Of a DNA stretch of 64,000 nt, positions 26,424 through 40,381 are shown one piece after another; positions within the stretch are counted from its first letter, which is position 1; each line of letters starts with the position of its first letter. A program made the position numbers and the translations under genes. The notes beneath the pieces were generated by a model, which made no database searches, was not told the origin of the DNA, and worked only from the letters and a program-made list of their open reading frames with translations. The DNA is from Chloroflexota bacterium. Lineage in GTDB: Bacteria; Chloroflexota; Dehalococcoidia; DSTF01; JACRBR01. The stretch covers positions 13,076 to 77,075 of the forward strand of contig JANNPX010000014.1 in assembly GCA_031400455.1 (NCBI GenBank), given 5' to 3'.

Positions 26424-27149
26424 TCAGGCCGGCGCGGCGTGCATCGATGCCATCGAAGCCGGCTCACGGTCTTCCAGGTGCCCGTCTTCCAGCCAGACGA
26501 TGCGGTCGGCGTACGGCAGCACGCGATGATCGTGGCTCACCATCAACACCGCCGTGCCCATGTCGTGCGCGATCATCTGCAGCATCGACATCACCTCGGC
26601 GCCTCGAGCGCCGTCCAGGCTCGCCGTCGGCTCGTCGGCCATGATCACGAGCGGGTTGTTGGCGACCGCCCGGGCGATAGCGACGCGCTGACGCTCGCCG
26701 CCGCTCAGTGTCCGCGGCCGATAGTCCTTCCGGTGGGTTAGCCCCAGGATCGATAGCAACTCGGCGGCGCGAGCCTGGGCGTTCTTGCCGGGCACCTTGG
26801 CCCGTCGCATCACCAGCTCCAGGTTCTGGCTCACGGTCAGCGAGTCCATCAGGTTGAACTCTTGGAAGACGAACCCCACCTTGTGCAGCCGCACGTCTGC
26901 TAGCTGGTCGCCGTTCAGCGAGGAGAGCGGCGTGCCGGCGATGATCACTTCACCCGACGTCGGCTTGCGAAGGGCGCCGGCTATCGTCAGCAGCGTCGAC
27001 TTGCCGGCGCCGGAAGGCCCCATCGTGATCACAACCTGCCGCGGCAAGAGTTGGAGTGATACCGAACGCATCGCGTGCGTCGGGTTCGTCTTGTCACCGA
27101 ACACCTGGCTGACGTTGACCAGTTCGAGTACCGGCGTCTCCGTCTGCAT
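26424..27149 (-). CDS. ABC ATPase, LolD/MacB family
   Basis: GPSGAGKST, GFVFQ, LSGGERQRVAIARA, DEPT. Confidence 0.95.
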   Translation of the reverse strand: MQTETPVLELVNVSQVFGDKTNPTHAMRSVSLQLLPRQVVITMGPSGAGKSTLLTIAGALRKPTSGEVIIAGTPLSSLNGDQLADVRLHKVGFVFQEFNLMDSLTVSQNLELVMRRAKVPGKNAQARAAELLSILGLTHRKDYRPRTLSGGERQRVAIARAVANNPLVIMADEPTASLDGARGAEVMSMLQMIAHDMGTAVLMVSHDHRVLPYADRIVWLEDGHLEDREPASMASMHAAPA

Positions 27150-27153
27150 CGCT

Positions 27154-28263
27154 CTATCCTTTGAACGCCACGGCCGGATCGATAGCGCCCACATGCCGCG
27201 CCGGCACGATCGACGCAGCAGCCGCCATGAACACCGTCGCCGCCAGCACGAGCACGATGTCCATCGGCCGCACGAGCACGATGAACGTTGCTACCAGCCG
27301 GTCGGCGAACATACTCACGATCAGCGTCAGGACCATGCCGAACACGAATCCCAACAGGCCTGTCACGATACTCTGGATCAACACGAGTCCGTAGAGATCG
27401 CGGTTGTTGAATCCGATCGCTTTCATCACACCAAACTCCCGCTGGCGCTCGACCGTCGCTGTATAGATCGTCAGGCTTGTGATCGCGATGCCAACGATGA
27501 GCGCGATCCCAAGGATCAACACGATGATCGGAATGATGTTGTCCAGGATGCGGTGGCGGGTTGCGGACGCGAACTCCTTCGACGTGAAAACGGTCACCCC
27601 TGGGTTCGCCGCGATCATTTCAGACTGCAATTGCGCGAATGACGCGCCGGGCTTCAAGCTGAATAACCAGAACGTCACGAGGTCGCCCATGTCGAGGAGT
27701 TCGCCGGCCGACTTCACATCGACGAACGACGCCTGCGTAAACGCGAAGTTGCCGCCGGTCGCGATGCCGATCACGTCGAAGGTCTTGTCGTTGCTGGTCA
27801 GCTTGTCGCCGACCCCCACGCCCGATGTGCGCGACAAGACGCTATCGATGACGATCTGGTTGCCGGTGGGGTTGCCCTTCCCTTTGACGATCTTCACGGG
27901 TCCGCCAATGCCCGACGCGACGTCGTAGCCGATGAGGTGCGTTTCGAACTTGTCCTTATCGTGAAGGAACTGCATAGGGCGCACGATCATCGGGTGAACG
28001 TCGGCTACGTCACTGCGCGCGCGCATCTCGTCGCCCATGGAGCCGGGCAGGATCGAAGCGGCGTTGATGAAATCCGTCGTGCCCTGTCGCGCGACCCAGC
28101 CGTCGGCGTGCACGTCTTCCACGAACCCGCCGACCTTCTCGTTCCACCCCTGGTAGAGCCCGATCAGTACGCTGATCAGGAAGACGGCGAAGCCAATGCC
28201 GGCCGCCGAGAAGGCGAAGCGCGTGCGCTCGGTCACGAGGTTCCGCACCGCGAGCAAGATCAT
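27154..28263 (-). CDS. ABC permease, MacB/FtsX family
   Basis: TM1, large periplasmic domain, then ERQREFGVMKAIG and 3 TMs; ends IDPAVAFK. Confidence 0.93.
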   Translation of the reverse strand: MILLAVRNLVTERTRFAFSAAGIGFAVFLISVLIGLYQGWNEKVGGFVEDVHADGWVARQGTTDFINAASILPGSMGDEMRARSDVADVHPMIVRPMQFLHDKDKFETHLIGYDVASGIGGPVKIVKGKGNPTGNQIVIDSVLSRTSGVGVGDKLTSNDKTFDVIGIATGGNFAFTQASFVDVKSAGELLDMGDLVTFWLFSLKPGASFAQLQSEMIAANPGVTVFTSKEFASATRHRILDNIIPIIVLILGIALIVGIAITSLTIYTATVERQREFGVMKAIGFNNRDLYGLVLIQSIVTGLLGFVFGMVLTLIVSMFADRLVATFIVLVRPMDIVLVLAATVFMAAAASIVPARHVGAIDPAVAFKG

Positions 28264-30017
28264 CCTGCCTCCGTCCTGATGTACGGCATCGCCGCAAGGA
28301 GCGTGGGAGCTGCGTCCATCACCGTACGATATCCGACAGCGGCGATCTCGTCGCCACGCTTGAAGTCGCGCACGCCGCCGCCACCCTCGACGCAGACCTC
28401 GATGTTGACGTCGGCGTCCACGTGGCTCACCTCCGAGAGGTGGTTCACCATGATCTCAAGCGAGCGGAGGATCGTCTCGATCGCGAAGGGGCGCTGCGGC
28501 TTCTCGTTCAGGCCGTCGCGCGGCGAAGTGTGCGATCCCGTCAGTCGCACGCCGATGACAAGGCCCGCGCCCAACTCGCGGCATTGCTGCACCGGCACCG
28601 GGTGCAGCACACTCCCGTCGACGAGATAGCTTCCGAGGGCAGCCGATGGTGGATACACGCCCGGAATTGCCATGCTGGCGAGCAACCTCGGCCAGGCCAG
28701 ACCGGAGGTGAAGGTCACCGCCGTTCGCCGAAAGAGGTCCGTCGCCACAACCGCCAGCGGTAGGTCCAGGTCCTCGATGTGGCGTTCTCCGCCAAGGCCG
28801 CGCAGCCCTTCCTTCAAGCCGCTGTTGCTCAGGAACGAATGGATCGGCAGCGTCGGCCGTACCGCCTTCGCGGCGACGCGTGCTGTGTGCTCCGTCAGTT
28901 CGTCCACCGTCATGCCGGCAGCGATGCCCGCCGCAATGGGCGCACCGATGCTGCACCCCGCGATGATGTCGATCGGCACGTCGAGTTCATCCAGGGCGCG
29001 CAGCACGCCCAGGTGCGCCAGCCCTTTCGCCGCTCCGGCGCCGAGCGCTACGCCGATACGTCGGTGCGTCAGCACGCGCGCCAGTCTCGCAATCGGAGTC
29101 CGCGGACCGTTCGAGTCTGACTCTGGCGGCACGATGCCCACGACCGGCAGTCCGACTCGCGCGGTCAGACGCCGCAGCGCTGGCTGCGTCCAGCGTTCGT
29201 CCCCAATCACGATGACCTGCCCGGCGGAATCATGTTCTGAGGTGGTGTACCCGTCGCTGGTTTCGTGGGCGACGTGCAATACCGATGATGCATTCGGCGC
29301 GATCTGATGGAACGCCGTCTCGCCGCCGAACAGGACGATCTCGTCGAATTCGTGCGAGAGCCGTTCTATGAGGCGCGGCAGTTCCGCCACGTCGGAACCA
29401 CTAATTGGCTGTACGGAGACCTTCGCGGCCTCCAGGTTCTGCTGACGGCTCGCATCGATGAAGCCTTCGCCCGCGACCAGCACCCTCACCCGCCCTGATG
29501 CCACGCTCGCCATGGCGGCGGGCAGGAGTGCCAACGCGCGCACGTCCGCGGGCCTACAACAAATGACGTGAACTCGCGCGGTGTGCAGGGCAAGCAGCCG
29601 CTCGTTCGCATGCTTCAGCCGCCCTGCCAGCGTTGCCGAGAGCGCCTCTATGAGGCGGGATCGCACGTCACCGACGCCCGCGAGCCGCGCCTGCGTCATC
29701 GCGTAGGTTTGGACAGCCGTCCCGGCGATCACGTCCGCGGAGGCGGGGTCACCGGTCAGTAGCGACATCTCACCTACGCACTCGCCGAAGCCGAGGCGCC
29801 CCAACTCGCGGCGCTCTCCGTTGTTGTTCGTCGCCATCACCGCTGCTACGCCCTCGACAATCACCTGGAAGAGCGGCTCAATCGTCCCTTGCGCGACCAG
29901 TACCTCGCCCGGCTGGTAGGTGCGTAGATCCATCACGGATCGAAGCGCGTCCCACTCGGTATCCGAGAGAAGCTGGAACAGCGTGCTCGCGAGCGTACGA
30001 TTCTCGATGTTTGGCAT
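28260..30017 (-). CDS. cNMP-binding domain plus patatin-like phospholipase (NTE-like)
   Basis: N-terminal GEVLVAQG..GECVGEMSLL cNMP fold; GAGAAKG, GCSIG nucleophile, ASMAIPG, VDGS. Confidence 0.92.
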   Translation of the reverse strand: MPNIENRTLASTLFQLLSDTEWDALRSVMDLRTYQPGEVLVAQGTIEPLFQVIVEGVAAVMATNNNGERRELGRLGFGECVGEMSLLTGDPASADVIAGTAVQTYAMTQARLAGVGDVRSRLIEALSATLAGRLKHANERLLALHTARVHVICCRPADVRALALLPAAMASVASGRVRVLVAGEGFIDASRQQNLEAAKVSVQPISGSDVAELPRLIERLSHEFDEIVLFGGETAFHQIAPNASSVLHVAHETSDGYTTSEHDSAGQVIVIGDERWTQPALRRLTARVGLPVVGIVPPESDSNGPRTPIARLARVLTHRRIGVALGAGAAKGLAHLGVLRALDELDVPIDIIAGCSIGAPIAAGIAAGMTVDELTEHTARVAAKAVRPTLPIHSFLSNSGLKEGLRGLGGERHIEDLDLPLAVVATDLFRRTAVTFTSGLAWPRLLASMAIPGVYPPSAALGSYLVDGSVLHPVPVQQCRELGAGLVIGVRLTGSHTSPRDGLNEKPQRPFAIETILRSLEIMVNHLSEVSHVDADVNIEVCVEGGGGVRDFKRGDEIAAVGYRTVMDAAPTLLAAMPYIRTEAG

Positions 30018-30131
30018 CAGCGATAGATTGCGCCTATCTGAGGCGAGACGCAAGCGATGATTGCGGAGCTTCGCTTCTTGACGGGCGAACGTTGCGCTCG
30101 CGTTAATTCGGGGCGGCATCGGTCGGGGCCG

Positions 30132-30160
30132 TTGACACGGGACAGGGCATCCCTCAGACT
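30132..30160 (+). promoter_or_regulatory. Possible sigma70 promoter for the giant protein gene
   Basis: TTGACA, 17 bp spacer, CAGACT (weak -10). Confidence 0.35.
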
Positions 30161-30284
30161 TTCTGGAGCTAGCCCGAAACTCCCCGCAGGGCACATCAGG
30201 CGACGCGGATCCGCTATGAGGACGTGTAGGGCAGCGGACGCCAGACCGACGCGACGATTTCGACAGCGGTTAGAGAGTTAAACC

Positions 30285-33200
30285 TTGCGTCACCTCCTTC
30301 GTACCCACTCGCTCGGCGTTGTGCTCGTGATTGCGGCCCTTGCGTCGCTGACTGCTATCGCGCCGCGTCTATGGCAGTCGGGTTCCGCACCCGCTACCGA
30401 GGCGGCAGGGATCGCGACTTCGGGTCGTGACCCGGCTCCGCTATTCGACCGCGACGACGAATCCAGAAGCCCAACTCGTACGCCGACCAAGACTCCCACG
30501 AAGACACCGACGCCCACGCGGACGGCCACGAAGACATCGACGCCCACGCGGACAGCCACCGCGACATCGACATCGACGCCGACATCCACGCCCACCCCCA
30601 CGGCGACACCGACGCTCCCCCCGGCGCTGGCGAACTTCGTAGTCACAGACGCCGCGTGGAAGTTCAGTCGCAGTCCGGGACAGGACTGGCAGAATGCGGC
30701 GTTCAACGACGGCACATGGGGCGCGGCGGTCGCGCCGAGCCAGGGGCTCTGCACATCGGGCGTCCCCAATCCCCAGATCGCCGCGCCTATGTGGGCGCCG
30801 AATCCGGTGGCATTCGAGACGGTGTACTTCCGTAGACTGTTTGCGCTCGACCAGGTGCCCACATCTGCGACGATCTTCACCGTCTTCGACGATATCGGCG
30901 ATCTCTACGTCAACGGGACGCTCGTTCGGACGGACAACAACCCGATCGTCGACGCGGAGCCGATGTCCGATGACATCGCCGCGCTCCTGCGGATCGGCGT
31001 GAACGTGATCGCCCTCCGTGTCACGGATGCGGCTGGGGCATGTCAGGCCGTGCAGGTGACCACGAGCTTCGTCGACCCGATCAACAGCCTCGCGCTCACC
31101 GTGGATCGCAACGCCGCGCCCGCGGGGCTCTCGCAGATACCGCTCGGCTCGATACCGATCGAAGCCATTGGAAGCAGCGGGAACGTCGCATCATCGGCGA
31201 TCCGCAACATGAACCTCGAGAGTTCACAGCTCAGCAGCATCCGGCTCTCGTCGATCCGGCTGAGCAGCATCGCGCTCGCCAGCACGCGGCTGAGCAGCAT
31301 CCAGCTTTCGTCGATTCCCATCACCTACCCAGGTGGCTGGGAGGCGATCCTCGACGGCACGGCGCTCGACGGCGTACCGCTGCAACAAGTGACGCTTGGG
31401 CAGCTCGCCGCGCTGAGCCCGGCGCCCGCTGCTCTGGATCCGAATTCGCCGGAACCGCTCACGATCGGCCAAGTGGACCTCAGTTCAACTGAACTCCGCT
31501 CGCTCAGTCTCGCGGCGGTCGCTCTCGGCAGTACGCGGCTCAGCTCGATCGCAGTCCCGGCAGGTGCGGCCGATTGGTGCGACGCGATCGCGCAAGCCGG
31601 ATCGACGTGCGCCGACCTCGGCTACACATCCGGCGATATCGGCGACGCCACGCTCATCGAACTCAACGTCAGGGGAGTGCGGCTCAGCTCCATCCAGCTC
31701 AGCAGCATCCGGCTCAGCAGCATCGATCTCGCCAGCTCTGAGCTCGGTTCGATTCGGCTCAGCAGCATCCGGCTCAGTTCGATTCAGCTCAGCAGCATCC
31801 GCCTCAGCTCCATTCGGCTCAGCAGCATCACCACGCCGGGCGGAGCCATCGCTTCCGTTCGGCTCAGTTCGATCGACCTGCCGGCGGGGGCCGCCAGCTG
31901 GTGCGAGTACTTCGCGACCAACGGACCCACATGCGCCGCGCTTGGCATCAGCGATACCAGCACGCTCTTCGAGGTCGCCGCCGCGCTCACGCAACAGAAC
32001 ATCCCGATCGCGTCGAGTGCGCTGGCGCCCATCCGGCTCAGCAGCATCCGGCTCAGCTCGATCCAGCTCAGCAGCATCAGGCTCAGCTCGATTCCGCTCG
32101 ACAGCATCGCGATCAGCGACACGCGGCTCAGCAGCATCCGGCTCAGCTCGATTCGGCTCAGCAGCATCGCGCCGGACGCGTCTCGACTCAGCAGCATCCG
32201 GCTCAGCTCCATCGCCAATGTCGACACGATTGTGTCTTGCGACATCGTTGCGTGCGCATCGGCTACGCTCGGTGATGCAGGCGACTTGAACGCAATCCTG
32301 CCGGACGCACTGCTTGGCGCTCTCGGCGCCTATGACGACGTCACCGTTCAAGACATCCTCGACGATCTTGGCGCGTCACCCGCCGAAGTTGCGTACTTCC
32401 TCAGCCTCTTCTACGGCGAGGTCACGGTCGGCGAGGTCGCGAACGACCCGACCGTGAACCTCGGCGATACGACGCTCGGACAGCTGCTGCTGGCGCTGCT
32501 CGTGAAGTCGGACTACCCGTGGGAGAACCTGCCGCTCGACGCCATCAACTCGCCCCTCGTCCCCGGTGGTGGCACGCCGCTCAATTACACCGCGACGTTC
32601 AACTACGCCGGTCCGCCCGCCGTCGAACCGACGCTGCTCCGGGTCGCCCTCCCGGACACCTTCCGCTACCTGCCCGGCACCACGACGATCACCATCACGG
32701 GCGCGCCCGTTGTGACGCTGCAAACGGAACCATCCGTTAGCGGTGCGACCGTCACGTGGGACGTGCCCGGCCTGATAGCGGGCGATCTCGTGCGCGTCGA
32801 CTTCCAGGCCCGTGCGGGCCTCCGTCTTGGCACGCAGACATCGTCGGTCGCCGCCCTTCGCGCGCCGTACCCGGAGACAAACGCCACGCTGCAAGCGCCC
32901 GTCACCATCGGCGAGAATTTTGAGTCGAACGACGACCCTGCCACAGCTCCCATTGTCGCGCCCGACACGCTCTATCTCTCGCACATCAGCAGCGCGACCG
33001 ACCGAGACTTCTTCCGCATTCCGGCCAGCTTCCAGCCCGGGCAGCGGGTGCAGGTTCTGCTGAGCCACCAGTCGCAGGACAACGACATTGCGCTCTTCAG
33101 CCCGGCGGCATCGCAGCTGCGCCCGTCCACCGGTGAACCGCTGCAGAGCCTGCCGCTCGATGACGACGGACGCGATATCAACAGCGCGGGCAACAACCCG

Positions 33201-36200
33201 CAGCCGCAGACGCTGCAGGACGTCGGAATCGCCGCGGCGCGGCTCAGCAGCATTCAGCTGAGCAGCATTCGGCTCAGTAGCATCTCTGCAAACCGCGGTT
33301 CCGCGGACGAATCCGTCGCCGCGCTCTCCACCGATTCCGATTCGGGTTACTACACGGTGCAGATCGGCGGCTACAACGGCGCGTCCGGCGTCGACCCGTA
33401 CATCATGCGCCTCAAGGTCGACGATCCCCCGCCCGATCCCGCCTGCGCCGCGCGCACGTTCCCGAATGCGGGCTCCGGGGTTGCCGGCACCACGCCGGCA
33501 TCGTTCCCGAACGACACCAACACGATCTTCCTCGTGAACGAGAAGCGCCTGGGCGATACCTATGGCGCATCAGCCGCGACGAGCGTGATGACCGCGCTGA
33601 CAACGCTCGCCGGGCGAAGCGATCTCGGCGTGCGTGGCGCTGTGCTGTCGATCGATGGCTCATCGTCCGTCGCAGGCGCGTACGCGGCCTGGGATGCAGC
33701 CCCGTGTTCGACCTCCACTGCGAACGCGGTCGTGAAGGCGATCAACGCGCTGGTCGACCAATATCGCACCAACATGCCGCAGCTCCAGAACATTGTCGTC
33801 GTCGGCGCCGATCAACTCGTGCCGTTCGCGCGCATCCCCGACCTCACTCGCATCTCGAACGAAGGCGACTACGCCGCTGATGCGCAGGCCACCGGCAACC
33901 CGGAATTCGCGAGCAGTTTCATCGCGCGCAACATCCTCACGGATGACGCGTACGCCGACTTCAATCCGACGCCCTGGCTCGACCGCCAGATCTTCGTGCC
34001 GCAGGTGGCCATTGGCCGGATGGTCGAAACGCCGGATCAGATCATCGCCCAGGTCAACCAGTTCATCGACTTCAGCGGCCGACTCGATCCGGACACCGCC
34101 CTGACGACCGGCTACGACTTCCTCGCCGACGGCGCGAACGAGATCGGGGCGTCGCTCGACACGCTGGTGGGCATTCCGAACGCGCAGCGCCTGATCAACG
34201 AAACGTGGACGAGCGCCGACCTTCAGGCGGCGCTCAACGACGCGACGCCGGTGCCGGATGTGGTGTCCCTGAACGCGCACTTCGATCAGTACCGGCTGCT
34301 CCCGGGCGCCGGCAACAGCACGAACGATGAGTCCGACCTCTACACCACGGCGGACATCGCGCGCGCCCCGGCCGATCCGCTCCTGCTGGAAGCGCGCGTC
34401 ATCTTCTCGATGGGCTGCCACTCCGGCCTGAACGCGCCCGACTTCCTCGTCGGTTCGCCGAACGCCGATCAGGCGCAGCGACTGCTCGACTGGCCGCAGG
34501 CGTTCTCCGATCAGGGTGCCGCGGTCTACGTCGCCAACACCGGTTACGGCTACGGCGATACGGATATCGTCGCGTACTCCGAGAAGGTGATGTCGCTGTT
34601 CGCCGAGCGCATCGGCAGCAAGACGGGCAGCACCCTCACCATTGGACAGGCACTGGCATACGCCAAGCAGGAGTACTTCGGCAGCCTGGTGCAGTACGAG
34701 GCCTACGATGAGAAGGCGCTACAGGAAACGACCTTCTACGGATTGCCCATGTTCCGCATCGGTCCGCCGATTCAGACGCCGCCACCCCTGTTGTCGGCAC
34801 TCTCGTCGCCGTCGCTGTCGGCCCTGTCATTGCCACCATTCGAGACCGATCCCCGCACCGGGCTCAACGCCTTCAGCATTGACGCTTCGCCGTCATTCGC
34901 CCTGATCGATCTCGGCGCGAAGGGCGCGTATTACACCAGCGATGGTGGTAGCGAGGCGAACGCCGGCCGTCCGATACAGCCGCAGTTCAGCGTCGACCTT
35001 CCTGTGTCGACGGATGGCTCGAAACCGCACGGCATCATCGTGACCGGGCTGCAGTCCACCGATACGCACGGCTTCAACGCGGTCTTCTCGAGCCCCGTGA
35101 CCGACGGCTCGGTGCCCGAACAGCCGACTGATACCATCTTCCCGTCGTCGATTCACAACCTCACCGCGTTCACGACGCCGTTCGGCCCCCAACATCGTGC
35201 AGTCTTCATGCCCGGACAGTTCCTGCCCGAAACGGGACAACCGGTGGGTACGGGTACACAACGCCTGTTCACAGGCATCCAGGCTACGGTGCTCTACTCG
35301 AACAGCAGCGACGTAACGCCGCCGACGATCATTCAGACACGCGCCGCCATCATCGGCGCGGACGCCAGCTTCGTCGTCGAAGCCGAAGACGACCTGCCCG
35401 ACAACGTCATGAGCGTGTTCGTACTGTTCCGTGCGCAGTCGAGCCCCGCGTGGTCCGCGCTCGACCTCGTGAACGAACCCGGCACGAATCGCTGGACAGG
35501 CTCAGCTCCCGCGGGCGGTCCGGTCGAGTACATGGTCTACGCTATCGATGCGGGCGGGAACGTCGCGCTCTCGACCAACAAGGGCGAGTTTCACCACACC
35601 GAGTCCGTGCCGCCGTCCAGCGGCCTGACGGTCACGGTCGCGGGTACGATAGCCGGCGGTGGCTGGTACAGCTCCGCGAGCATCACGGTCGCTGGCGCGC
35701 CGGGCGCCACCTTCGAGACGAGCGTTGACGGCAAGCCGTTCCTGCCCTACACCGGCGCGGTCGCTATTACCGGCCCGGGCGTGCACGTCGTCAATGCGCG
35801 GGGCTCCGACTTCTCCAGCGGCGGCGCCATCGTGCCTGTCGATGCCACGCCACCCACCGTGGCGATCACGGCGCCCGCGCTCAACGGAACGCTGCTCAAG
35901 AATCAGCCGGTCGCGGCATCATATGCATGTGCCGACGCCGGCTCCGGCGTGGCGACATGCCTGGGCTCGGTCGCCAACGGTGCGCCGATTGACACGTCGG
36001 CGTCTGGCCCGAAGGTGTTCCAGGTGACGGCAAGTGATGTCGCCGGCAACCTCAGCGTTGTCAATCATGCATATTCGGTCAGCACGTGCGCGTTCGGCAA
36101 CACCGCCTGCGACGGGCTCCCCGATGCGTACAAGCTCGCGCAGGCCTGCTTCGCGCAGTACCCACTCACGCAAGACATCGGCGCGCTCGACACGGACGGG

Positions 36201-36533
36201 GATGGTCTAACGAACCTCGAAGAGTTCGTCTACCTCACGGATCCGTGCAAGGTGGACACCGACGACGATGGCTATACCGATGACCGGGAGGTTACGCTCG
36301 CTAGCAACCCGCTGATCTACTGCGGGATCATGCGGGCTGATGTGACTGGTGATGGCGTCATCAGCATCATGGATCTCAGCCTGGTCGCCGGATACTGGCA
36401 GCAGTCGGTGCCACCGGCACCTGCCCGTTACGACCAGGACGGCGACGCACAGATAAGCATCATCGATCTCTCGAGGATGGCGGCCTGGTTCTCGCGCAAC
36501 ATCTCGCAGTGTCCGAGCGCTCCCAGTCCGTAG
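30285..36533 (+). CDS. Giant secreted multidomain protein: PT linker, jelly-roll domain, (R/Q)LSSI repeats, PPC-like domain, C25 (gingipain-like) peptidase, Ig-like domains, Ca-binding repeats, dockerin-like C-terminus
   Basis: Signal peptide; TVYFRR..DDIGDLYVNG; VVVGADQLVPF, TDDAYAD, VAIGRM, NAHF and MGCHSG; DTDGDG/DTDDDG; ADVTGDGVISIMDL and YDQDGDAQISIIDL. Confidence 0.85.
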   Translation: MRHLLRTHSLGVVLVIAALASLTAIAPRLWQSGSAPATEAAGIATSGRDPAPLFDRDDESRSPTRTPTKTPTKTPTPTRTATKTSTPTRTATATSTSTPTSTPTPTATPTLPPALANFVVTDAAWKFSRSPGQDWQNAAFNDGTWGAAVAPSQGLCTSGVPNPQIAAPMWAPNPVAFETVYFRRLFALDQVPTSATIFTVFDDIGDLYVNGTLVRTDNNPIVDAEPMSDDIAALLRIGVNVIALRVTDAAGACQAVQVTTSFVDPINSLALTVDRNAAPAGLSQIPLGSIPIEAIGSSGNVASSAIRNMNLESSQLSSIRLSSIRLSSIALASTRLSSIQLSSIPITYPGGWEAILDGTALDGVPLQQVTLGQLAALSPAPAALDPNSPEPLTIGQVDLSSTELRSLSLAAVALGSTRLSSIAVPAGAADWCDAIAQAGSTCADLGYTSGDIGDATLIELNVRGVRLSSIQLSSIRLSSIDLASSELGSIRLSSIRLSSIQLSSIRLSSIRLSSITTPGGAIASVRLSSIDLPAGAASWCEYFATNGPTCAALGISDTSTLFEVAAALTQQNIPIASSALAPIRLSSIRLSSIQLSSIRLSSIPLDSIAISDTRLSSIRLSSIRLSSIAPDASRLSSIRLSSIANVDTIVSCDIVACASATLGDAGDLNAILPDALLGALGAYDDVTVQDILDDLGASPAEVAYFLSLFYGEVTVGEVANDPTVNLGDTTLGQLLLALLVKSDYPWENLPLDAINSPLVPGGGTPLNYTATFNYAGPPAVEPTLLRVALPDTFRYLPGTTTITITGAPVVTLQTEPSVSGATVTWDVPGLIAGDLVRVDFQARAGLRLGTQTSSVAALRAPYPETNATLQAPVTIGENFESNDDPATAPIVAPDTLYLSHISSATDRDFFRIPASFQPGQRVQVLLSHQSQDNDIALFSPAASQLRPSTGEPLQSLPLDDDGRDINSAGNNPQPQTLQDVGIAAARLSSIQLSSIRLSSISANRGSADESVAALSTDSDSGYYTVQIGGYNGASGVDPYIMRLKVDDPPPDPACAARTFPNAGSGVAGTTPASFPNDTNTIFLVNEKRLGDTYGASAATSVMTALTTLAGRSDLGVRGAVLSIDGSSSVAGAYAAWDAAPCSTSTANAVVKAINALVDQYRTNMPQLQNIVVVGADQLVPFARIPDLTRISNEGDYAADAQATGNPEFASSFIARNILTDDAYADFNPTPWLDRQIFVPQVAIGRMVETPDQIIAQVNQFIDFSGRLDPDTALTTGYDFLADGANEIGASLDTLVGIPNAQRLINETWTSADLQAALNDATPVPDVVSLNAHFDQYRLLPGAGNSTNDESDLYTTADIARAPADPLLLEARVIFSMGCHSGLNAPDFLVGSPNADQAQRLLDWPQAFSDQGAAVYVANTGYGYGDTDIVAYSEKVMSLFAERIGSKTGSTLTIGQALAYAKQEYFGSLVQYEAYDEKALQETTFYGLPMFRIGPPIQTPPPLLSALSSPSLSALSLPPFETDPRTGLNAFSIDASPSFALIDLGAKGAYYTSDGGSEANAGRPIQPQFSVDLPVSTDGSKPHGIIVTGLQSTDTHGFNAVFSSPVTDGSVPEQPTDTIFPSSIHNLTAFTTPFGPQHRAVFMPGQFLPETGQPVGTGTQRLFTGIQATVLYSNSSDVTPPTIIQTRAAIIGADASFVVEAEDDLPDNVMSVFVLFRAQSSPAWSALDLVNEPGTNRWTGSAPAGGPVEYMVYAIDAGGNVALSTNKGEFHHTESVPPSSGLTVTVAGTIAGGGWYSSASITVAGAPGATFETSVDGKPFLPYTGAVAITGPGVHVVNARGSDFSSGGAIVPVDATPPTVAITAPALNGTLLKNQPVAASYACADAGSGVATCLGSVANGAPIDTSASGPKVFQVTASDVAGNLSVVNHAYSVSTCAFGNTACDGLPDAYKLAQACFAQYPLTQDIGALDTDGDGLTNLEEFVYLTDPCKVDTDDDGYTDDREVTLASNPLIYCGIMRADVTGDGVISIMDLSLVAGYWQQSVPPAPARYDQDGDAQISIIDLSRMAAWFSRNISQCPSAPSP
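31227..33284 (+). repeat. Coding 15-bp tandem repeats (CGGCTCAGCAGCATC = RLSSI)
   Basis: About 27 xLSSI units counted by eye: four blocks in 31227-32213 and one block at 33240-33284. Confidence 0.95.
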
Positions 36534-36580
36534 GGGTCTGACGTCCGGAGAGCGATCGCCGGCGCCGGTAGAATAGGCGC

Positions 36581-39500
36581 ATGACGGCCAGCCTCACCCC
36601 TTACGTTCCACGGCTACTGGTCGAGTGGGATCGGGTCGCTCCCAGCGATGCGTACCGCTTGATCGACGGTACGCTCGTCTTCATCGACATCTCCGGCTTC
36701 ACGGCTATGTCCGAACGCCTCGCACGGAGCGGCAAGGTGGGTGCCGAAGAAGTCACGGAAGTGATGAACGCCAGCTTCACACGTCTCCTGGAACACGCCT
36801 ACGCTGAAGGCGGGTCCCTGCTCAAGTTCGGCGGCGATGCGCTGCTCCTCTTTTACTCTGGCGAACGCCATGCCCAGCGTGGCTGTCGCGCCGCGATGTC
36901 AATGCGCCAGGAGTTGCGGCGAGCGGGTCGTTTTCGCACGTCGGCGGGCCTGGTCGGGCTGCGCATGTCTGTCGGCGTGCACAGTGGCGAGTGTGCGTTC
37001 TTCCTCGCCGGCGATTCCCATCGTGAGTTGATCATCGCTGGCCCCACCGTGACGAAGACCGTCGAAATGGAGGCGACGGCGCAGACGGGGGAGATCCTCG
37101 TGAGCGCCGAGATCGCCGCGATGTTGCCGGCGGGCGGCTCCGTCGCCCATCCATCCGGCGGGTTCCTGCTGAAGAAGGCCCCGCCGTCAACCGGAGATAG
37201 CGCGCCCGAGGATGCGGCGCTGGTCTTCGCGCATGGAGATATCTTCGTTCCGGTAGCGATTCGCCAGCATCTGGGTGAGACCGCGGCGGAGAGTGAACAT
37301 CGTCAGGTCACGGTAGCGTTCATCCATTTCGACCGCACCGACGCATTGCTTGCGGCCGATGGTCCCGCGGCGCTCGCAGCGAAGCTCGACTCGCTCATGC
37401 GGAACGTGCAGGCGGCAACGCTCGAACATGACGTCTGCGTGCTCGGTACCGATATCGACAAAGATGGCGGAAAGATCATCCTCACGGCAGGCGTGCCCCG
37501 CAGTAACGATAACGACGAGGAGCGAATGCTCCGCGCTCTCCGCGCCATCGTCGACGCGAGTGCCGATCTTCCTTTGCGCGTCGGCGTCAATCGCGGCCCC
37601 GTGTTCGCCGGCGACATCGGTCCGTCATATCGCAAGACGTACACGGTGATGGGCGATGCCGTGAACCTCGCGGCGCGGCTCATGGCGAAAGCTGAACCGG
37701 GCCAGATCCTGTCGACCGAGAGCGTCATCGAGCGTTCCCGCACGCAGTTCAAGACGCGCGCGCTCGAACCCTTCAGCGTGAAGGGGAAGGCCCGGCCGAT
37801 CACGGCGTTCGCGATCGGTTCTATGCGGGCGCTTCGGGCCAGAGGCGACGCCAGCCGCGTTCCGCTTGTCGGGCGCGAGCAGGAGATGCACCTGCTCACC
37901 GCGACGCTCGACTCCATCCACGTCCAGGGCACGGCCATTGTCGAGCTGATCGGCCCCGCCGGCATCGGGAAGTCGCGGCTCATTCGTGAACTCGCGGCGT
38001 CGCGCGAAGGTATCGCGTACTTCGAGACGACCGCCGAGCAGTACGCCTCAGCGACACCGTACTTCGCCTTCGGTGCGTTCCTGCGGTCCGTCCTTGGGAT
38101 AGCGCCGCAGAGCCGCGGTGCGAACGCGGTCGCAACCCTCACCGAACGCGTCAACGAGCACGCCCCTTTGCTCGCGCCGTGGCTGCCGCTGGTCGCGCTC
38201 GTGATGGATCTCCGCGTCCCATCGACGCCCGAGGTCGACCAGCTCGACCCGCGCTTCCGCCGCAACCGGCTGCATGAAGTGGTCACTGAGCTCTTGACGC
38301 GGCTCTTGCCGCGCCCGGCCGTGATCGCCTTCGATGACGCGCATTGGCTCGACGAAGCTTCGCGCGACCTCCTGCGGTACGTCATGGCAAGCGTTGACCA
38401 GGTGCCGTGGCTTATCTGCATCCCCCGCCGGCCAGACGACGCCCTCTCGTTCGCTCCCGATGCGCCGAACGCCGCCGTTATCAGGCTCGAACCGCTCGCG
38501 CCGGACGCCGCGCTCGCCCTCGTGGCGGCGGTCGCAAGTGACGCGCCCATCTCCCAGCACGAGTTGCGCGCCCTCGCCGAGCGCGCCGGCGGCAACCCGC
38601 TCTTCCTCCGCGAGATCGTCGCCAACCGCCTCGCCCAGCAGGAGGGCGCTGGCATGCCTGAGAGTGTGGAAGCGTTGCTTACCGCACGCATCGATCGCCT
38701 GGCGCCGGACGATCGACGGCTCCTGCGTTACGCATCCGTCTTCGGCACCAGCATCAGCACGGAGGCGCTGGACGGCAGCCTTGCGGGCCTGGTTGCATCT
38801 GAGGGCGAGGCGAGCTGGCTGCGTCTCGATGAGTTCCTCGTGACGGATGTGCCGGGGAGCGTCCGTTTCAAACACGCGGTCGTTCAGGAGGTCGCGTACG
38901 AAGGCCTGCCGTTTCGCCTGCGGCGAGAGCTGCACGAACGCATAGGCCTGTACCTTGAGCGCACTGCTGGCGAGCGTGCAGACGACGACGCCGACCTGCT
39001 CTCTGTCCATTTCTCGCGAGCGCAGGATTACCGGCGCGCCTACCGCTATGCGCGAATCGCGGGCGATCGTTCGAAAGCCCGGTTTGCCAACGTTGAGGCA
39101 TCGGAGGCGTACGCCCGCGCGATCTCTGCCGCACGCCTGCTAGACGATGTCCCCTCAGTGGAACTCGCGGCGCTGCTCGAATCGCGCGGCGACGTCTGCG
39201 AGCTTGCCGGGCGCTACGCCGATGCGGCGTCCGCGTATCAGGCCGCCGGTCGCATTGATGGTTATCACGGCGCAGCGCCGGGCGGACTCGCGCTGAAGCA
39301 GGGTGTGATTCGCGAGCGGACGGGCCGGTACACGCCTGCGCTCCGGTGGTACGGGCGTGCGTTGCGGGCGGAGGATGGCGATCCGCGCGATCGCGCCAAG
39401 CTAGGGCTCGCCTACGCCGGCGTACGGTTCCGCCAGGGCCGTTACGCAGACTGCGCACACTGGGCTCGCACGGCGCTACGCGACGCCCAAGCGGTGGGTG

Positions 39501-40381
39501 ACCGGGCCGGTGAGGCGCATGCCTATTACCTGCTCGATCACGCGTTCACCATGCTGGGTGATGCGGAGAGCGGCCGTTTCCGAGCGCTCGCGCTTCCCAT
39601 CTTTGAAGAGCTCGGCGACCTAGTTGGTCAGGCGAACGTGCTCAACAATCTCGGTGTCGCCGCCACTATCGAAGGACGCTGGGACGAAGCGATCGGTTCG
39701 TTCGAGCGGAGCAAGGTTGCGCGCGACAAGGCAGGTGATGTCGTCGGCGCAGCCACGGCGTCCAACAACATCGGCGAAGTACTGTTGAGCCAGGGCCACA
39801 CCGCCGAGGCGGAGGCAATTTTCAAGGACGCTCTGCGCGTCTGGCGAGCGGCGAACTATCCGATTGGCGTCGCGGTGGCCACGAGCGCGCTGGGGCTCGC
39901 CGCGTCGCGTGCGGGCCGCGCCGTCGAGTCCGAGGCGTTGCTGAACGAGGCTCTCGATGCGTTCCGCGAACTGCGCGCGGAGAGCTTTGTAGTGGAAACC
40001 AAGGCAAGGTTGGCTGAGCAGGCGCTGATGTGCGGCAACGACTCGATCGCCCGGCAGCGTATCACTGAGGCGCTCGATCATGCTGAGCGGGTCGACGGTG
40101 TTGGCGAGGCGAACGCCGCCCTCCACCGCCTGCTAGGTGAAGTCCAGGCCCGCGCCGGGGAGCCTGACGCCGCTGCCAAGTCATTTGAGGAGAGCGTGCG
40201 CGTCGCCCGCGCGATTAACGCCGACTACGAGATCGCGCTGACGCTCGATGCGTTCGCGCGACTGCGGATGGCGCAGGGACAGCCGGCGGACGAAGAAGTG
40301 CGCCAGGCTCGCGAGATCCAGCAGCGGCTTGGGATCTTGGCGCTGCCGTCCCCGCCAGCGCCAGTGCGTTCAGACACCTAG
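36581..40381 (+). CDS. Tandem class III adenylate/guanylate cyclase domains, STAND AAA ATPase and TPR repeats (soluble-AC-like)
   Basis: FIDISGFT, KFGGDA; second domain GDAVNLAARL; Walker A GPAGIGKS, Walker B IAFDDAH, GGNPLF; TPRs with NNLG/NNIG. Confidence 0.93.
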   Translation: MTASLTPYVPRLLVEWDRVAPSDAYRLIDGTLVFIDISGFTAMSERLARSGKVGAEEVTEVMNASFTRLLEHAYAEGGSLLKFGGDALLLFYSGERHAQRGCRAAMSMRQELRRAGRFRTSAGLVGLRMSVGVHSGECAFFLAGDSHRELIIAGPTVTKTVEMEATAQTGEILVSAEIAAMLPAGGSVAHPSGGFLLKKAPPSTGDSAPEDAALVFAHGDIFVPVAIRQHLGETAAESEHRQVTVAFIHFDRTDALLAADGPAALAAKLDSLMRNVQAATLEHDVCVLGTDIDKDGGKIILTAGVPRSNDNDEERMLRALRAIVDASADLPLRVGVNRGPVFAGDIGPSYRKTYTVMGDAVNLAARLMAKAEPGQILSTESVIERSRTQFKTRALEPFSVKGKARPITAFAIGSMRALRARGDASRVPLVGREQEMHLLTATLDSIHVQGTAIVELIGPAGIGKSRLIRELAASREGIAYFETTAEQYASATPYFAFGAFLRSVLGIAPQSRGANAVATLTERVNEHAPLLAPWLPLVALVMDLRVPSTPEVDQLDPRFRRNRLHEVVTELLTRLLPRPAVIAFDDAHWLDEASRDLLRYVMASVDQVPWLICIPRRPDDALSFAPDAPNAAVIRLEPLAPDAALALVAAVASDAPISQHELRALAERAGGNPLFLREIVANRLAQQEGAGMPESVEALLTARIDRLAPDDRRLLRYASVFGTSISTEALDGSLAGLVASEGEASWLRLDEFLVTDVPGSVRFKHAVVQEVAYEGLPFRLRRELHERIGLYLERTAGERADDDADLLSVHFSRAQDYRRAYRYARIAGDRSKARFANVEASEAYARAISAARLLDDVPSVELAALLESRGDVCELAGRYADAASAYQAAGRIDGYHGAAPGGLALKQGVIRERTGRYTPALRWYGRALRAEDGDPRDRAKLGLAYAGVRFRQGRYADCAHWARTALRDAQAVGDRAGEAHAYYLLDHAFTMLGDAESGRFRALALPIFEELGDLVGQANVLNNLGVAATIEGRWDEAIGSFERSKVARDKAGDVVGAATASNNIGEVLLSQGHTAEAEAIFKDALRVWRAANYPIGVAVATSALGLAASRAGRAVESEALLNEALDAFRELRAESFVVETKARLAEQALMCGNDSIARQRITEALDHAERVDGVGEANAALHRLLGEVQARAGEPDAAAKSFEESVRVARAINADYEIALTLDAFARLRMAQGQPADEEVRQAREIQQRLGILALPSPPAPVRSDT

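Follow-up and report, generated by a model that had tools for sequence, protein, structure and literature searches.

The locus described here lies in the genome of a Chloroflexota bacterium of the class Dehalococcoidia (GenBank assembly GCA_031400455.1, contig JANNPX010000014.1, positions 13,076 to 77,075 of the forward strand). This whole stretch of 64,000 nucleotides (nt) is referred to as the window, and positions are given on its scale. Five genes at 26424-40381 are arranged in two divergent arms, with all open reading frames (ORFs) as listed in the original prediction, an earlier reading of the same DNA from its letters alone. One arm, on the plus strand, encodes a giant, putatively secreted protein of 2082 residues (30285-36533) and, 47 nt further on (36534-36580 being the spacer), an adenylyl cyclase of 1266 residues (36581-40381) resembling the soluble adenylyl cyclase (sAC) of class IIIb. 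The other arm, on the minus strand, encodes a lipase with a cyclic-nucleotide-binding (CNB) and a patatin domain (585 residues, 28260-30017), the permease of a MacB-type ABC transporter (369 residues, 27154-28263) and an ABC ATPase (256 residues, 26424-27194). Pfam backs every domain call that had been made for these proteins except the one for the giant protein. Comparison with other genomes leads to two statements: the cyclase and the giant protein are a deeply conserved, near-obligatory gene pair across two phyla, and the lipase, permease and ATPase are a separate triple that is often but not always juxtaposed with this pair.

The pairing was followed from both sides. A scan of one genome per species gave at least 548 loci encoding the core of the giant protein, and the surroundings of the best 80 of them were analysed, up to 10 kb on each side. 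These 80 loci come from Dehalococcoidia, other Chloroflexota and many Actinomycetota. The cyclase is encoded within 10 kb of the giant gene in 55 of them, in Chloroflexota as well as in Actinomycetota and in four orientations: upstream and divergent (31 loci), downstream on the same strand (13), downstream and convergent (7) and upstream on the same strand (4). In L035 and L045 (our own locus and genome numbers are used where loci or genomes have to be told apart) the TPR and/or NTPase part of a cyclase stands at the contig end, with no cyclase domain. Among giant loci with full flanks, the cyclase is present in 40 of 46. Clustering of the ORFs from the 80 loci and the window recovered only two widely conserved families, the giant protein (80 of 81 sources) and the cyclase (57 sources); no third conserved gene around the pair was found among these 81 sources, the next real family being present in 9. 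Two larger ORF clusters of about 210 residues (42 and 35 sources) were set aside, since they were judged, from the coordinates of their representatives only, to be shadow ORFs opposite the cyclase and giant genes.

In the reverse direction, 300 Chloroflexota genomes were sampled, 24 of which, besides the genome of the window, had a tandem-cyclase match at E≤1e-40, and one locus was taken from each of 20. A C25-like core is encoded next door to the cyclase in 16 of these 20 loci; two of the others are cut by contig ends and two have none. The two genes may even overlap, by 4 nt in genome G271, where the C25-like protein is 1193 residues long and has a signal-peptide-like start, a PPC domain and GGQIASI repeats of its own. 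Among 41 related genomes, the window's own included, eight encode the giant protein, and all eight have a cyclase orthologue, which is full-length in each of the seven besides the window's genome. The window's genome has a single copy of each, at E≤1e-40 for the cyclase and by the searches made for the giant protein. Over the 55 paired loci, the identities of the cores and of the cyclases to the window copies are correlated (r = 0.77), a correlation that could be explained by shared descent alone. The original prediction had rested on the linkage of the families and had proposed its recurrence in other genomes as the check. The linkage is indeed conserved, in many gene orders: between the cyclase and the giant protein over two phyla, at the frequencies just given, and between the cyclase, the patatin and the ABC genes within one Dehalococcoidia family.

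A different arrangement was observed at L040 (19-5620), a giant locus without a cyclase. A HisKA_3 kinase, a LuxR-type response regulator, an ABC ATPase and an 836-residue MacB/BceB-like permease are encoded there directly upstream of the giant gene, so that a pump of the same kind may here receive a different input. At L042 an ABC ATPase match, and the match only, was seen at the same position.

The cyclase consists, by Pfam, of two Guanylate_cyc stretches followed by AAA_16 and TPR matches. The first cyclase domain (CHD1) spans about residues 20-190 (36638-37150) and the second (CHD2) residues 239-408 (37295-37804). They are followed by a STAND NTPase of the AAA_16 type at residues 428-608 (37862-38404; E 7.5e-25) and by a TPR region at about residues 840-1240 (TPR_12, E 4e-25). 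The TPR region also resembles the Pfam MalT-like TPR model, at 24.2 bits and thus below the 45-bit cut-off. Among solved structures, human ADCY10 is the closest relative of residues 1-420 (E 1.2e-23), and the match extends over both halves. The motifs quoted in the original prediction, FIDISG and GGDA in domain 1 and NLAAR in domain 2, are all found in the translation. The two metal-binding aspartates are D36 in FIDISG and D86 in KFGGDA, the ADCY10 counterparts being FVDISG and KFAGDA, and the lysine of KFGGD is present. In the second half, T355, N362 and R366 lie within YTVMGDAVNLAAR, for which the ADCY10 counterpart is YTVIGQKVNLAAR; T355 stands opposite the threonine of the human 'EYTVIG', and N362 and R366 stand opposite the human NLAAR motif. 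Domain 2 lacks both metal aspartates, with H249 and K298 in those columns, and domain 1 lacks the Asn/Arg pair, so that one composite active site is expected.

Among 41 full-length orthologues, drawn from 41 loci, the first half retains its two metal aspartates in 40 and 39, respectively, and the second half its Asn in 36 and its Arg in 41. The class IIIb position is Thr or Ser in 33 of them and Ala in seven, and the Walker A lysine (K464) is present in all 41. K294 has the canonical spacing of the substrate-specifying lysine and is not conserved; K298 is conserved in 34 of 41. The alignment with ADCY10 and the conservation of these residues bear out the single composite, sAC-like site that had been proposed, and the protein is thus predicted to be a cyclase with one intact active site of class IIIb. 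A P-loop and TPR motifs follow the two cyclase halves, as in sAC, so the protein appears to have the build of full-length sAC (ADCY10, sACfl), that is, C1-C2-STAND ATPase-TPR, with metal aspartates in the first half and Thr/Asn/Arg in the second, although its C-terminal part is likened to that of sAC by domain type. Unlike human sAC, the window cyclase has a valine at the position aligned with human R176, presumably the bicarbonate-binding arginine, and a bicarbonate response should therefore not be assumed. According to a passage of PMC2613629, sAC belongs to class IIIb, a subclass marked partly by the threonine that replaces a substrate-binding aspartate, and the prokaryotic class IIIb cyclases examined up to that article, as the same text puts it, were all responsive to inorganic carbon. 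In human sAC, the C-terminal 1131 residues, otherwise unexplained, contain a P-loop and putative TPR motifs, as one part of PMC3475452 describes them. A separate observation concerns genome G001 (L012/L017, C6), in which the cyclase orthologue is in two overlapping pieces (query 1-663 and 656-797, in frames of 670 and 801 residues), which suggests a frameshift or an assembly error.

The giant protein is made of an N-terminal signal or anchor, a Pro-Thr linker, repeats, a PPC-like region, a gingipain-fold core, an Ig-like tail, TSP3 and a dockerin; the dockerin, TSP3 and pentapeptide assignments are Pfam matches. Its N-terminus has basic residues and then a hydrophobic run, and reads as a signal peptide or a membrane anchor. 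Residues 315-1000 (31227-33284) hold 27 copies of a five-residue repeat, (R/Q)LSSI, three of them inside the PPC-like region. These repeats may form a beta-helix stalk or may be the protease's own cleavage sites. Repeats of the PLxSI type appear in the family consensus of the giant relatives, and GGQIASI repeats stand at the corresponding place in the distant relative of G271 (L167, 4447-8028).

For the core of the giant protein no Pfam or NCBIfam family was found, there being no PF01364 match at E≤0.01, and a sequence search of solved structures with the giant protein returned designed pentapeptide-repeat proteins only. The fold of the core (residues 1040-1600, 33402-35084) was therefore modelled, from a 14-sequence alignment, with moderate confidence (pLDDT 64, pTM 0.69). 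The top Foldseek matches of the model are gingipain R (RgpB, 4ief, E 7e-9; 1cvr, E 1e-8) and then Kgp, in a range from 7e-9 to 1e-6, followed by separase and CHAT proteases. His1332 (34278-34280) and Cys1378 (34416-34418) are invariant in all 81 core sequences. In the model they follow the strands E287-291 and E333-336, respectively, a correspondence of position and not a residue-level superposition on the gingipain dyad, and they fit as a candidate catalytic dyad of clan CD. The core thus probably has a gingipain (C25)-like caspase-hemoglobinase fold, and its protease activity is a prediction from that fold. The gingipains RgpB and Kgp (C25, clan CD) are its best structural matches and are exported, as the giant protein would be; the invariant His and Cys, each after a beta-strand of the model, would agree with clan CD. 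The sequence identity to gingipains is only 10-15%, there is no Pfam C25 match, and the protein as a whole is a 2082-residue product of a Chloroflexota genome that includes arrays of five-residue repeats, a PPC-like region and a dockerin. At least 553 relatives of the core were found in databases; they are 1150-3640 residues long and their extra modules differ widely, including beta-propellers, beta-helices, PKD domains and binding-protein domains. PF01364 matches 7 of the 120 giant homologues listed, and a few are named C25 peptidases by their sources. The original description of the giant protein as C25-like with a caspase fold is thus favoured by the model, by the invariant His and Cys and by these few homologues, while the Pfam and NCBIfam models give it no backing.

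In the other arm, the lipase is of the NTE/RssA type. Its CNB domain (Pfam cNMP_binding, E 2.2e-15) lies at about 29682-29924 and its patatin domain at about 28584-29048. The longest ORF extends to 30194; the true start is likely the methionine at 30017, by agreement with homologues of 585 residues. The divergent intergenic region between the arms, as read from the sequence, then covers 30018-30284 and is 267 nt long, or 90 nt with the start at 30194. All 31 homologues share the patatin motifs GAGAAKG, GCSIG (with Ser356) and D467-G468 without change, the NCBIfam RssA model matches at E 1.9e-27, below its cut-off, and homologues are labelled 'NTE family protein' by JGI. As in NTE/PNPLA6-7 and RssA-type patatins, the CNB domain precedes a patatin domain with intact GxGxxG, GxSxG and DG motifs. 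The lipase departs from the NTE family in carrying a single sensor domain, in lacking a membrane anchor and in its constant coupling to a MacB-type pump, to whose permease it is occasionally fused. The fold of the CNB domain matches PKA, PKG and CAP, and its phosphate-binding cassette reads GEMSLLTGDPASA (PASA) where PKG and PKA have PRSA or RRTA. The cassette glutamate is present, and is replaced by Asp in at least two relatives (G020, L106).

The lipase stop and the permease start overlap as ATGA. The permease matches FtsX (PF02687) and MacB_PCD (PF12704) and the ATPase ABC_tran (PF00005), so that by their Pfam domains the two resemble type VII transporters of the MacB/DevCA/LolCDE kind, with a four-helix FtsX permease, a MacB periplasmic core domain and a separate ATPase. 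Unlike in DevCA, the scores of both are below the family cut-offs (DevC model on the permease, 51 against 290 bits; NCBIfam DevA on the ATPase, 218 against 295.8 bits), and no DevB/HlyD-type adaptor is encoded among the flanking ORFs scanned. In protein P0197 (930 residues, 49% identical) the lipase and the permease are fused, and a similar fusion occurs as an open frame in the Nocardioidaceae locus L028; in principle, both might be artefacts of assembly at the overlap. The ATGA coupling and the two natural fusions are the basis on which a physical contact between lipase and pump may be suggested.

The permease and the ATPase follow the patatin in every relative with visible context, and patatin, permease and ATPase are a fixed three-gene unit within this Dehalococcoidia family. 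This unit is beside the cyclase in six of ten resolvable relatives and occurs without it in four; genome G016, with its short contigs, was left out of this tally. In G020, G021 and G023 a cyclase orthologue is present, no giant protein was detected, and the cyclase is directly beside the patatin-permease-ATPase unit in three different orders (convergent, co-directional and divergent); the patatin of G023 is truncated. In G018 patatin, permease, ATPase and giant genes share one strand and the cyclase is convergent; in the metagenome contig L102 giant, cyclase, patatin, permease and ATPase genes are all on one strand; in G011, read across two contigs, the cyclase is divergent from the giant gene and the patatin follows the giant gene. 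In G004, a member of the same genus, the patatin is replaced at this position by a glutaminase whose C-terminal CNB domain has a canonical pocket, and in G018 a glutaminase-STAS-CNB gene stands just upstream of the patatin. That the five genes make up one obligatory system is ruled out by the relatives with the lipase unit and no cyclase. What had been described as a self-contained circuit is accordingly a pair and a separate triple.

Two further observations concern the surroundings of the lipase unit. In G021 (L099, C19, 5262-6287) an IS1595-family transposase gene is immediately upstream of the patatin-permease-ATPase-cyclase run, and the transposase may be involved in rearrangements of this neighbourhood. 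In G020 (L097, C84, 89-2846) glutamate synthase genes (a C-terminal part of GltB and a GltD-like gene) are directly upstream of the patatin unit, and the glutaminase-CNB genes of G004 and G018 are at or next to the corresponding position. The recurrence of such neighbours could point to a connection with glutamine/glutamate metabolism or be no more than coincidence.

Receiver domains for cyclic nucleotides are found around the cyclase-giant pair outside this family as well. In the actinomycetotal loci L028 and L072, the giant and cyclase genes have as neighbours a MacB-type permease and an ATPase that carries a CNB domain at its C-terminus. With a home-made CNB profile, such domains were detected at 16 of the 80 giant loci and at 3 of the 20 loci centred on the cyclase. 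Their carriers, by Pfam, include SulP-STAS transporters (4), MFS transporters (4) and ABC ATPases (2), and others are CRP-type regulators, a LuxR-type regulator, an M50-like protein, a patatin (L095) and the glutaminases. The genome of the window has eight CNB domains in 3.33 Mb, from which about 0.05 would be expected per 21 kb; the 16 of 80 giant loci then correspond to a roughly fourfold enrichment, a rough figure in that the background rate is that of the window's genome only. In the same genome, on contig C38 (L188, 3969-6973), a second CNB-patatin gene is directly followed by an alpha/beta-hydrolase-cyclase gene, the longest ORF overlapping, and on C57 (L189, 3851-10273) a glutaminase-STAS-CNB gene is about 3 kb from another alpha/beta-hydrolase-cyclase fusion. 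Proximity of cyclase and receiver therefore seems to be a habit of this genome. On contig C37 (677-11768) of the same genome, six cyclase domains were noticed in open frames of 448-550 residues within 11 kb.

Housekeeping genes flank the locus, on one side a cytochrome b/Rieske cluster, an iron-type ABC importer, an MFS transporter, a short-chain dehydrogenase and a metallophosphoesterase, and on the other side ChsH2-like, thiolase, acyl-CoA ligase and enoyl-CoA hydratase genes. The ORFs of the window that were scanned include no gene of a mobile element or of a defence system. Up to about 36 kb the GC skew of the window has a negative sign and beyond about 40 kb a positive one, the cumulative minimum being at 36-40 kb, within the region of the cyclase gene, and the genes downstream are mostly on the plus strand. 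This change of sign could mark a replication origin, a terminus or an inversion breakpoint.

Taken together, these data are best explained, with a probability that we put at about 0.6, by a chromosomal cyclic AMP (cAMP) signalling neighbourhood with the sAC-type cyclase as its hub, serving cell-surface physiology and not abortive-infection defence. The STAND/TPR part would sense a cytoplasmic cue and turn the cyclase on, and the cAMP would then act on receiver proteins encoded nearby. Such receivers would be the lipase-exporter unit in the window, the CNB-domain glutaminase in sister genomes, and ABC ATPases, SulP and MFS transporters and CRP-type regulators in Actinomycetota. The outcome would be altered membrane lipids or export, together with a changed display or activity of the surface protease. 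A further proposal, which we consider unlikely, is that the sAC-type sensor controls the exported giant protease through the MacB-type pump, acting by mechanotransmission. The target of cAMP would in this case be a receiver domain linked to the pump (the coupled lipase in the window, the ATPase fusion in Actinomycetota), and the periplasmic domain of the pump would release, anchor or activate the giant protein, in a manner likened to that of FtsEX and wall hydrolases.

A number of observations weigh against the signalling neighbourhood. Four relatives (G008, G014, G015 and G019) have the lipase unit with neither cyclase nor giant gene in the stretch fetched, and no full-length cyclase orthologue was found in their genomes, of which that of G019 is only 51% complete, while at G015 the contig ends just upstream and the downstream side is the visible one; in the metagenome contig L103 the lipase is alone. 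The arginine of the phosphate-binding cassette holds the cyclic phosphate in CAP- and PKA-type domains. In the lipase it is replaced by alanine, as it is in 31 of 31 homologues, down to 48% identity, and the CNB-patatin paralogue on C38 also lacks it, whereas the other readable CNB proteins, including the actinobacterial CNB-patatin of L095, the ABC-CNB protein of L072 and both glutaminases, keep it. The conservation of the CNB domain argues that it is in use, and its control by cAMP may be weak, altered or absent; its ligand may be cAMP, perhaps weakly bound, or some other compound. With this pocket, the description 'cNMP-gated' (gated by cyclic nucleotide monophosphates), which the original prediction had given to the patatin, is unproven: PASA stands for PR[ST]A in all of these 31 homologues. 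Of the 25 giant loci in which no cyclase was seen, six have full flanks, and in two of these six a two-component system with a MacB/BceB-like pump appears to take its place. The giant and cyclase genes of G009 are on different contigs. As far as can be judged from their sequences, the cyclase would be cytoplasmic and the giant protein exported, and hence in different compartments. The 35 cyclase-domain matches and eight CNB domains of the window's genome make cross-talk likely and mean that the assignment of this cyclase to these receivers is not exclusive. Lastly, the genomes compared are related, so that the counts overstate their independence.

Several of these points would also follow if the locus combined two unrelated modules, namely a functional cyclase-giant pair and a lipase unit that is an independent lipid or envelope exporter under some control other than cAMP, their synteny being inherited within one family. 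The lipase units that stand alone, in four of the ten resolvable relatives and in L103, and the uniform alanine in the pocket are consistent with this, and close juxtaposition is confined to one Dehalococcoidia family except for L028, L072 and L095. We nevertheless regard it as doubtful, since adjacency to the cyclase survives at least six gene orders, including loss of the giant protein in G020, G021 and G023 and replacement of the lipase in G004, variation that plain synteny does not predict, and since analogous MacB-type pumps with receiver domains stand by the pair in another phylum. An abortive-infection system of the Pycsar/CBASS type, defence being one of the roles suggested in the original prediction, is very improbable. 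In such a system the STAND-TPR part would sense phage, and a cyclic nucleotide would switch on the patatin, which would destroy the membrane. The domain logic is shared, as a class III cyclase is encoded together with a CNB-domain effector and a patatin as membrane-acting enzyme, and the PADLOC models for PycC (52 bits), for Pycsar effectors and for phospholipase effectors were matched weakly. However, these matches are at the level of domains: the PycC models reach at most 52 bits on single domains, and the effector models cover only the CNB domain or the patatin, whereas Pycsar proper joins a pyrimidine cyclase (PycC) to a CNB effector with a TIR or membrane-spanning killing domain. The closest relative of the cyclase is sAC, with its Thr-type adenine pocket, here combined with STAND-TPR; there is no CD-NTase at the locus; and the lipase belongs to the NTE/RssA type, has its translation coupled to that of an exporter and lacks the pocket arginine. 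The flanks hold genes of respiration, transport and lipid metabolism, and the scanned ORFs gave no sign of mobile elements or defence. The locus is inherited within a lineage and is not island-like. The pair is moreover inherited over two phyla together with an exported giant protein, a partner that is not known from any such defence system.

A regulator and its target may also be envisaged. The cyclase would then be a MalT-like STAND sensor of a product that the giant protease generates outside the cell, its cAMP would act through a CRP-type regulator on the giant gene, and the lipase unit would be a member of the regulon and not a direct receiver. The divergent arrangement, typical of such pairs, is the commonest one (31 of 55), and the MalT-like match of the TPR region, below cut-off as it is, points in the same direction. 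CRP-type genes occur near the pair in L041 and in L169/L170/L175, a receiver-LuxR gene occurs in L028, and the lipase pocket without its arginine would suit an indirect role. Against this, the ORF clustering over 81 sources revealed no CRP-type gene conserved at the locus, and a 4-nt overlap within a single operon, as seen for the two genes in some Chloroflexota, is an unusual arrangement for a regulator with its target. Such a relation is, in our opinion, distinctly unlikely, and the cAMP signalling neighbourhood remains the reading that we prefer.

Each of the protein families involved is known, and we regard the locus as a variant of cAMP signalling modules rather than as a system of a new type. 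For the lipase-pump arm, the closest counterpart described is Rv2563/Rv2564 of Mycobacterium tuberculosis with the neighbouring Rv2565, which we take to be a patatin. Rv2563/Rv2564 are called MacB-like, with uncertain function, in a section of PMC7761784, and cyclic-nucleotide-binding domains are listed for Rv2564 and Rv2565 in part of PMC4886424. A published pairing of an sAC-type cyclase with a C25-like protein or with the lipase unit was not found in the literature searched, which included few subscription journals. The present locus adds one cyclase with both partners, the exchange of lipase and glutaminase at the same position, the lipase-permease fusions and the missing pocket arginine. 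It also calls for caution, in that not every cluster of a cyclase and a patatin with a cNMP domain should be taken for a phage-defence system.

The regulatory two-thirds of sAC, with its P-loop and TPR motifs, is poorly understood, and most of the human protein is referred to as being of unknown function in a passage of PMC3475452. The recurrent partners of bacterial proteins built like sAC provide concrete hypotheses for what such cyclases sense and control. They also tie a second messenger to two widespread and unstudied families, namely the giant C25-like proteins found in Chloroflexota and Actinomycetota of soil, and MacB-type pumps that bear CNB domains and have a mycobacterial counterpart. 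If the control of the giant protease through the pump were true, the ancestral role of the STAND-TPR half of sAC would be that of the input to an inside-out switch for a surface protease.

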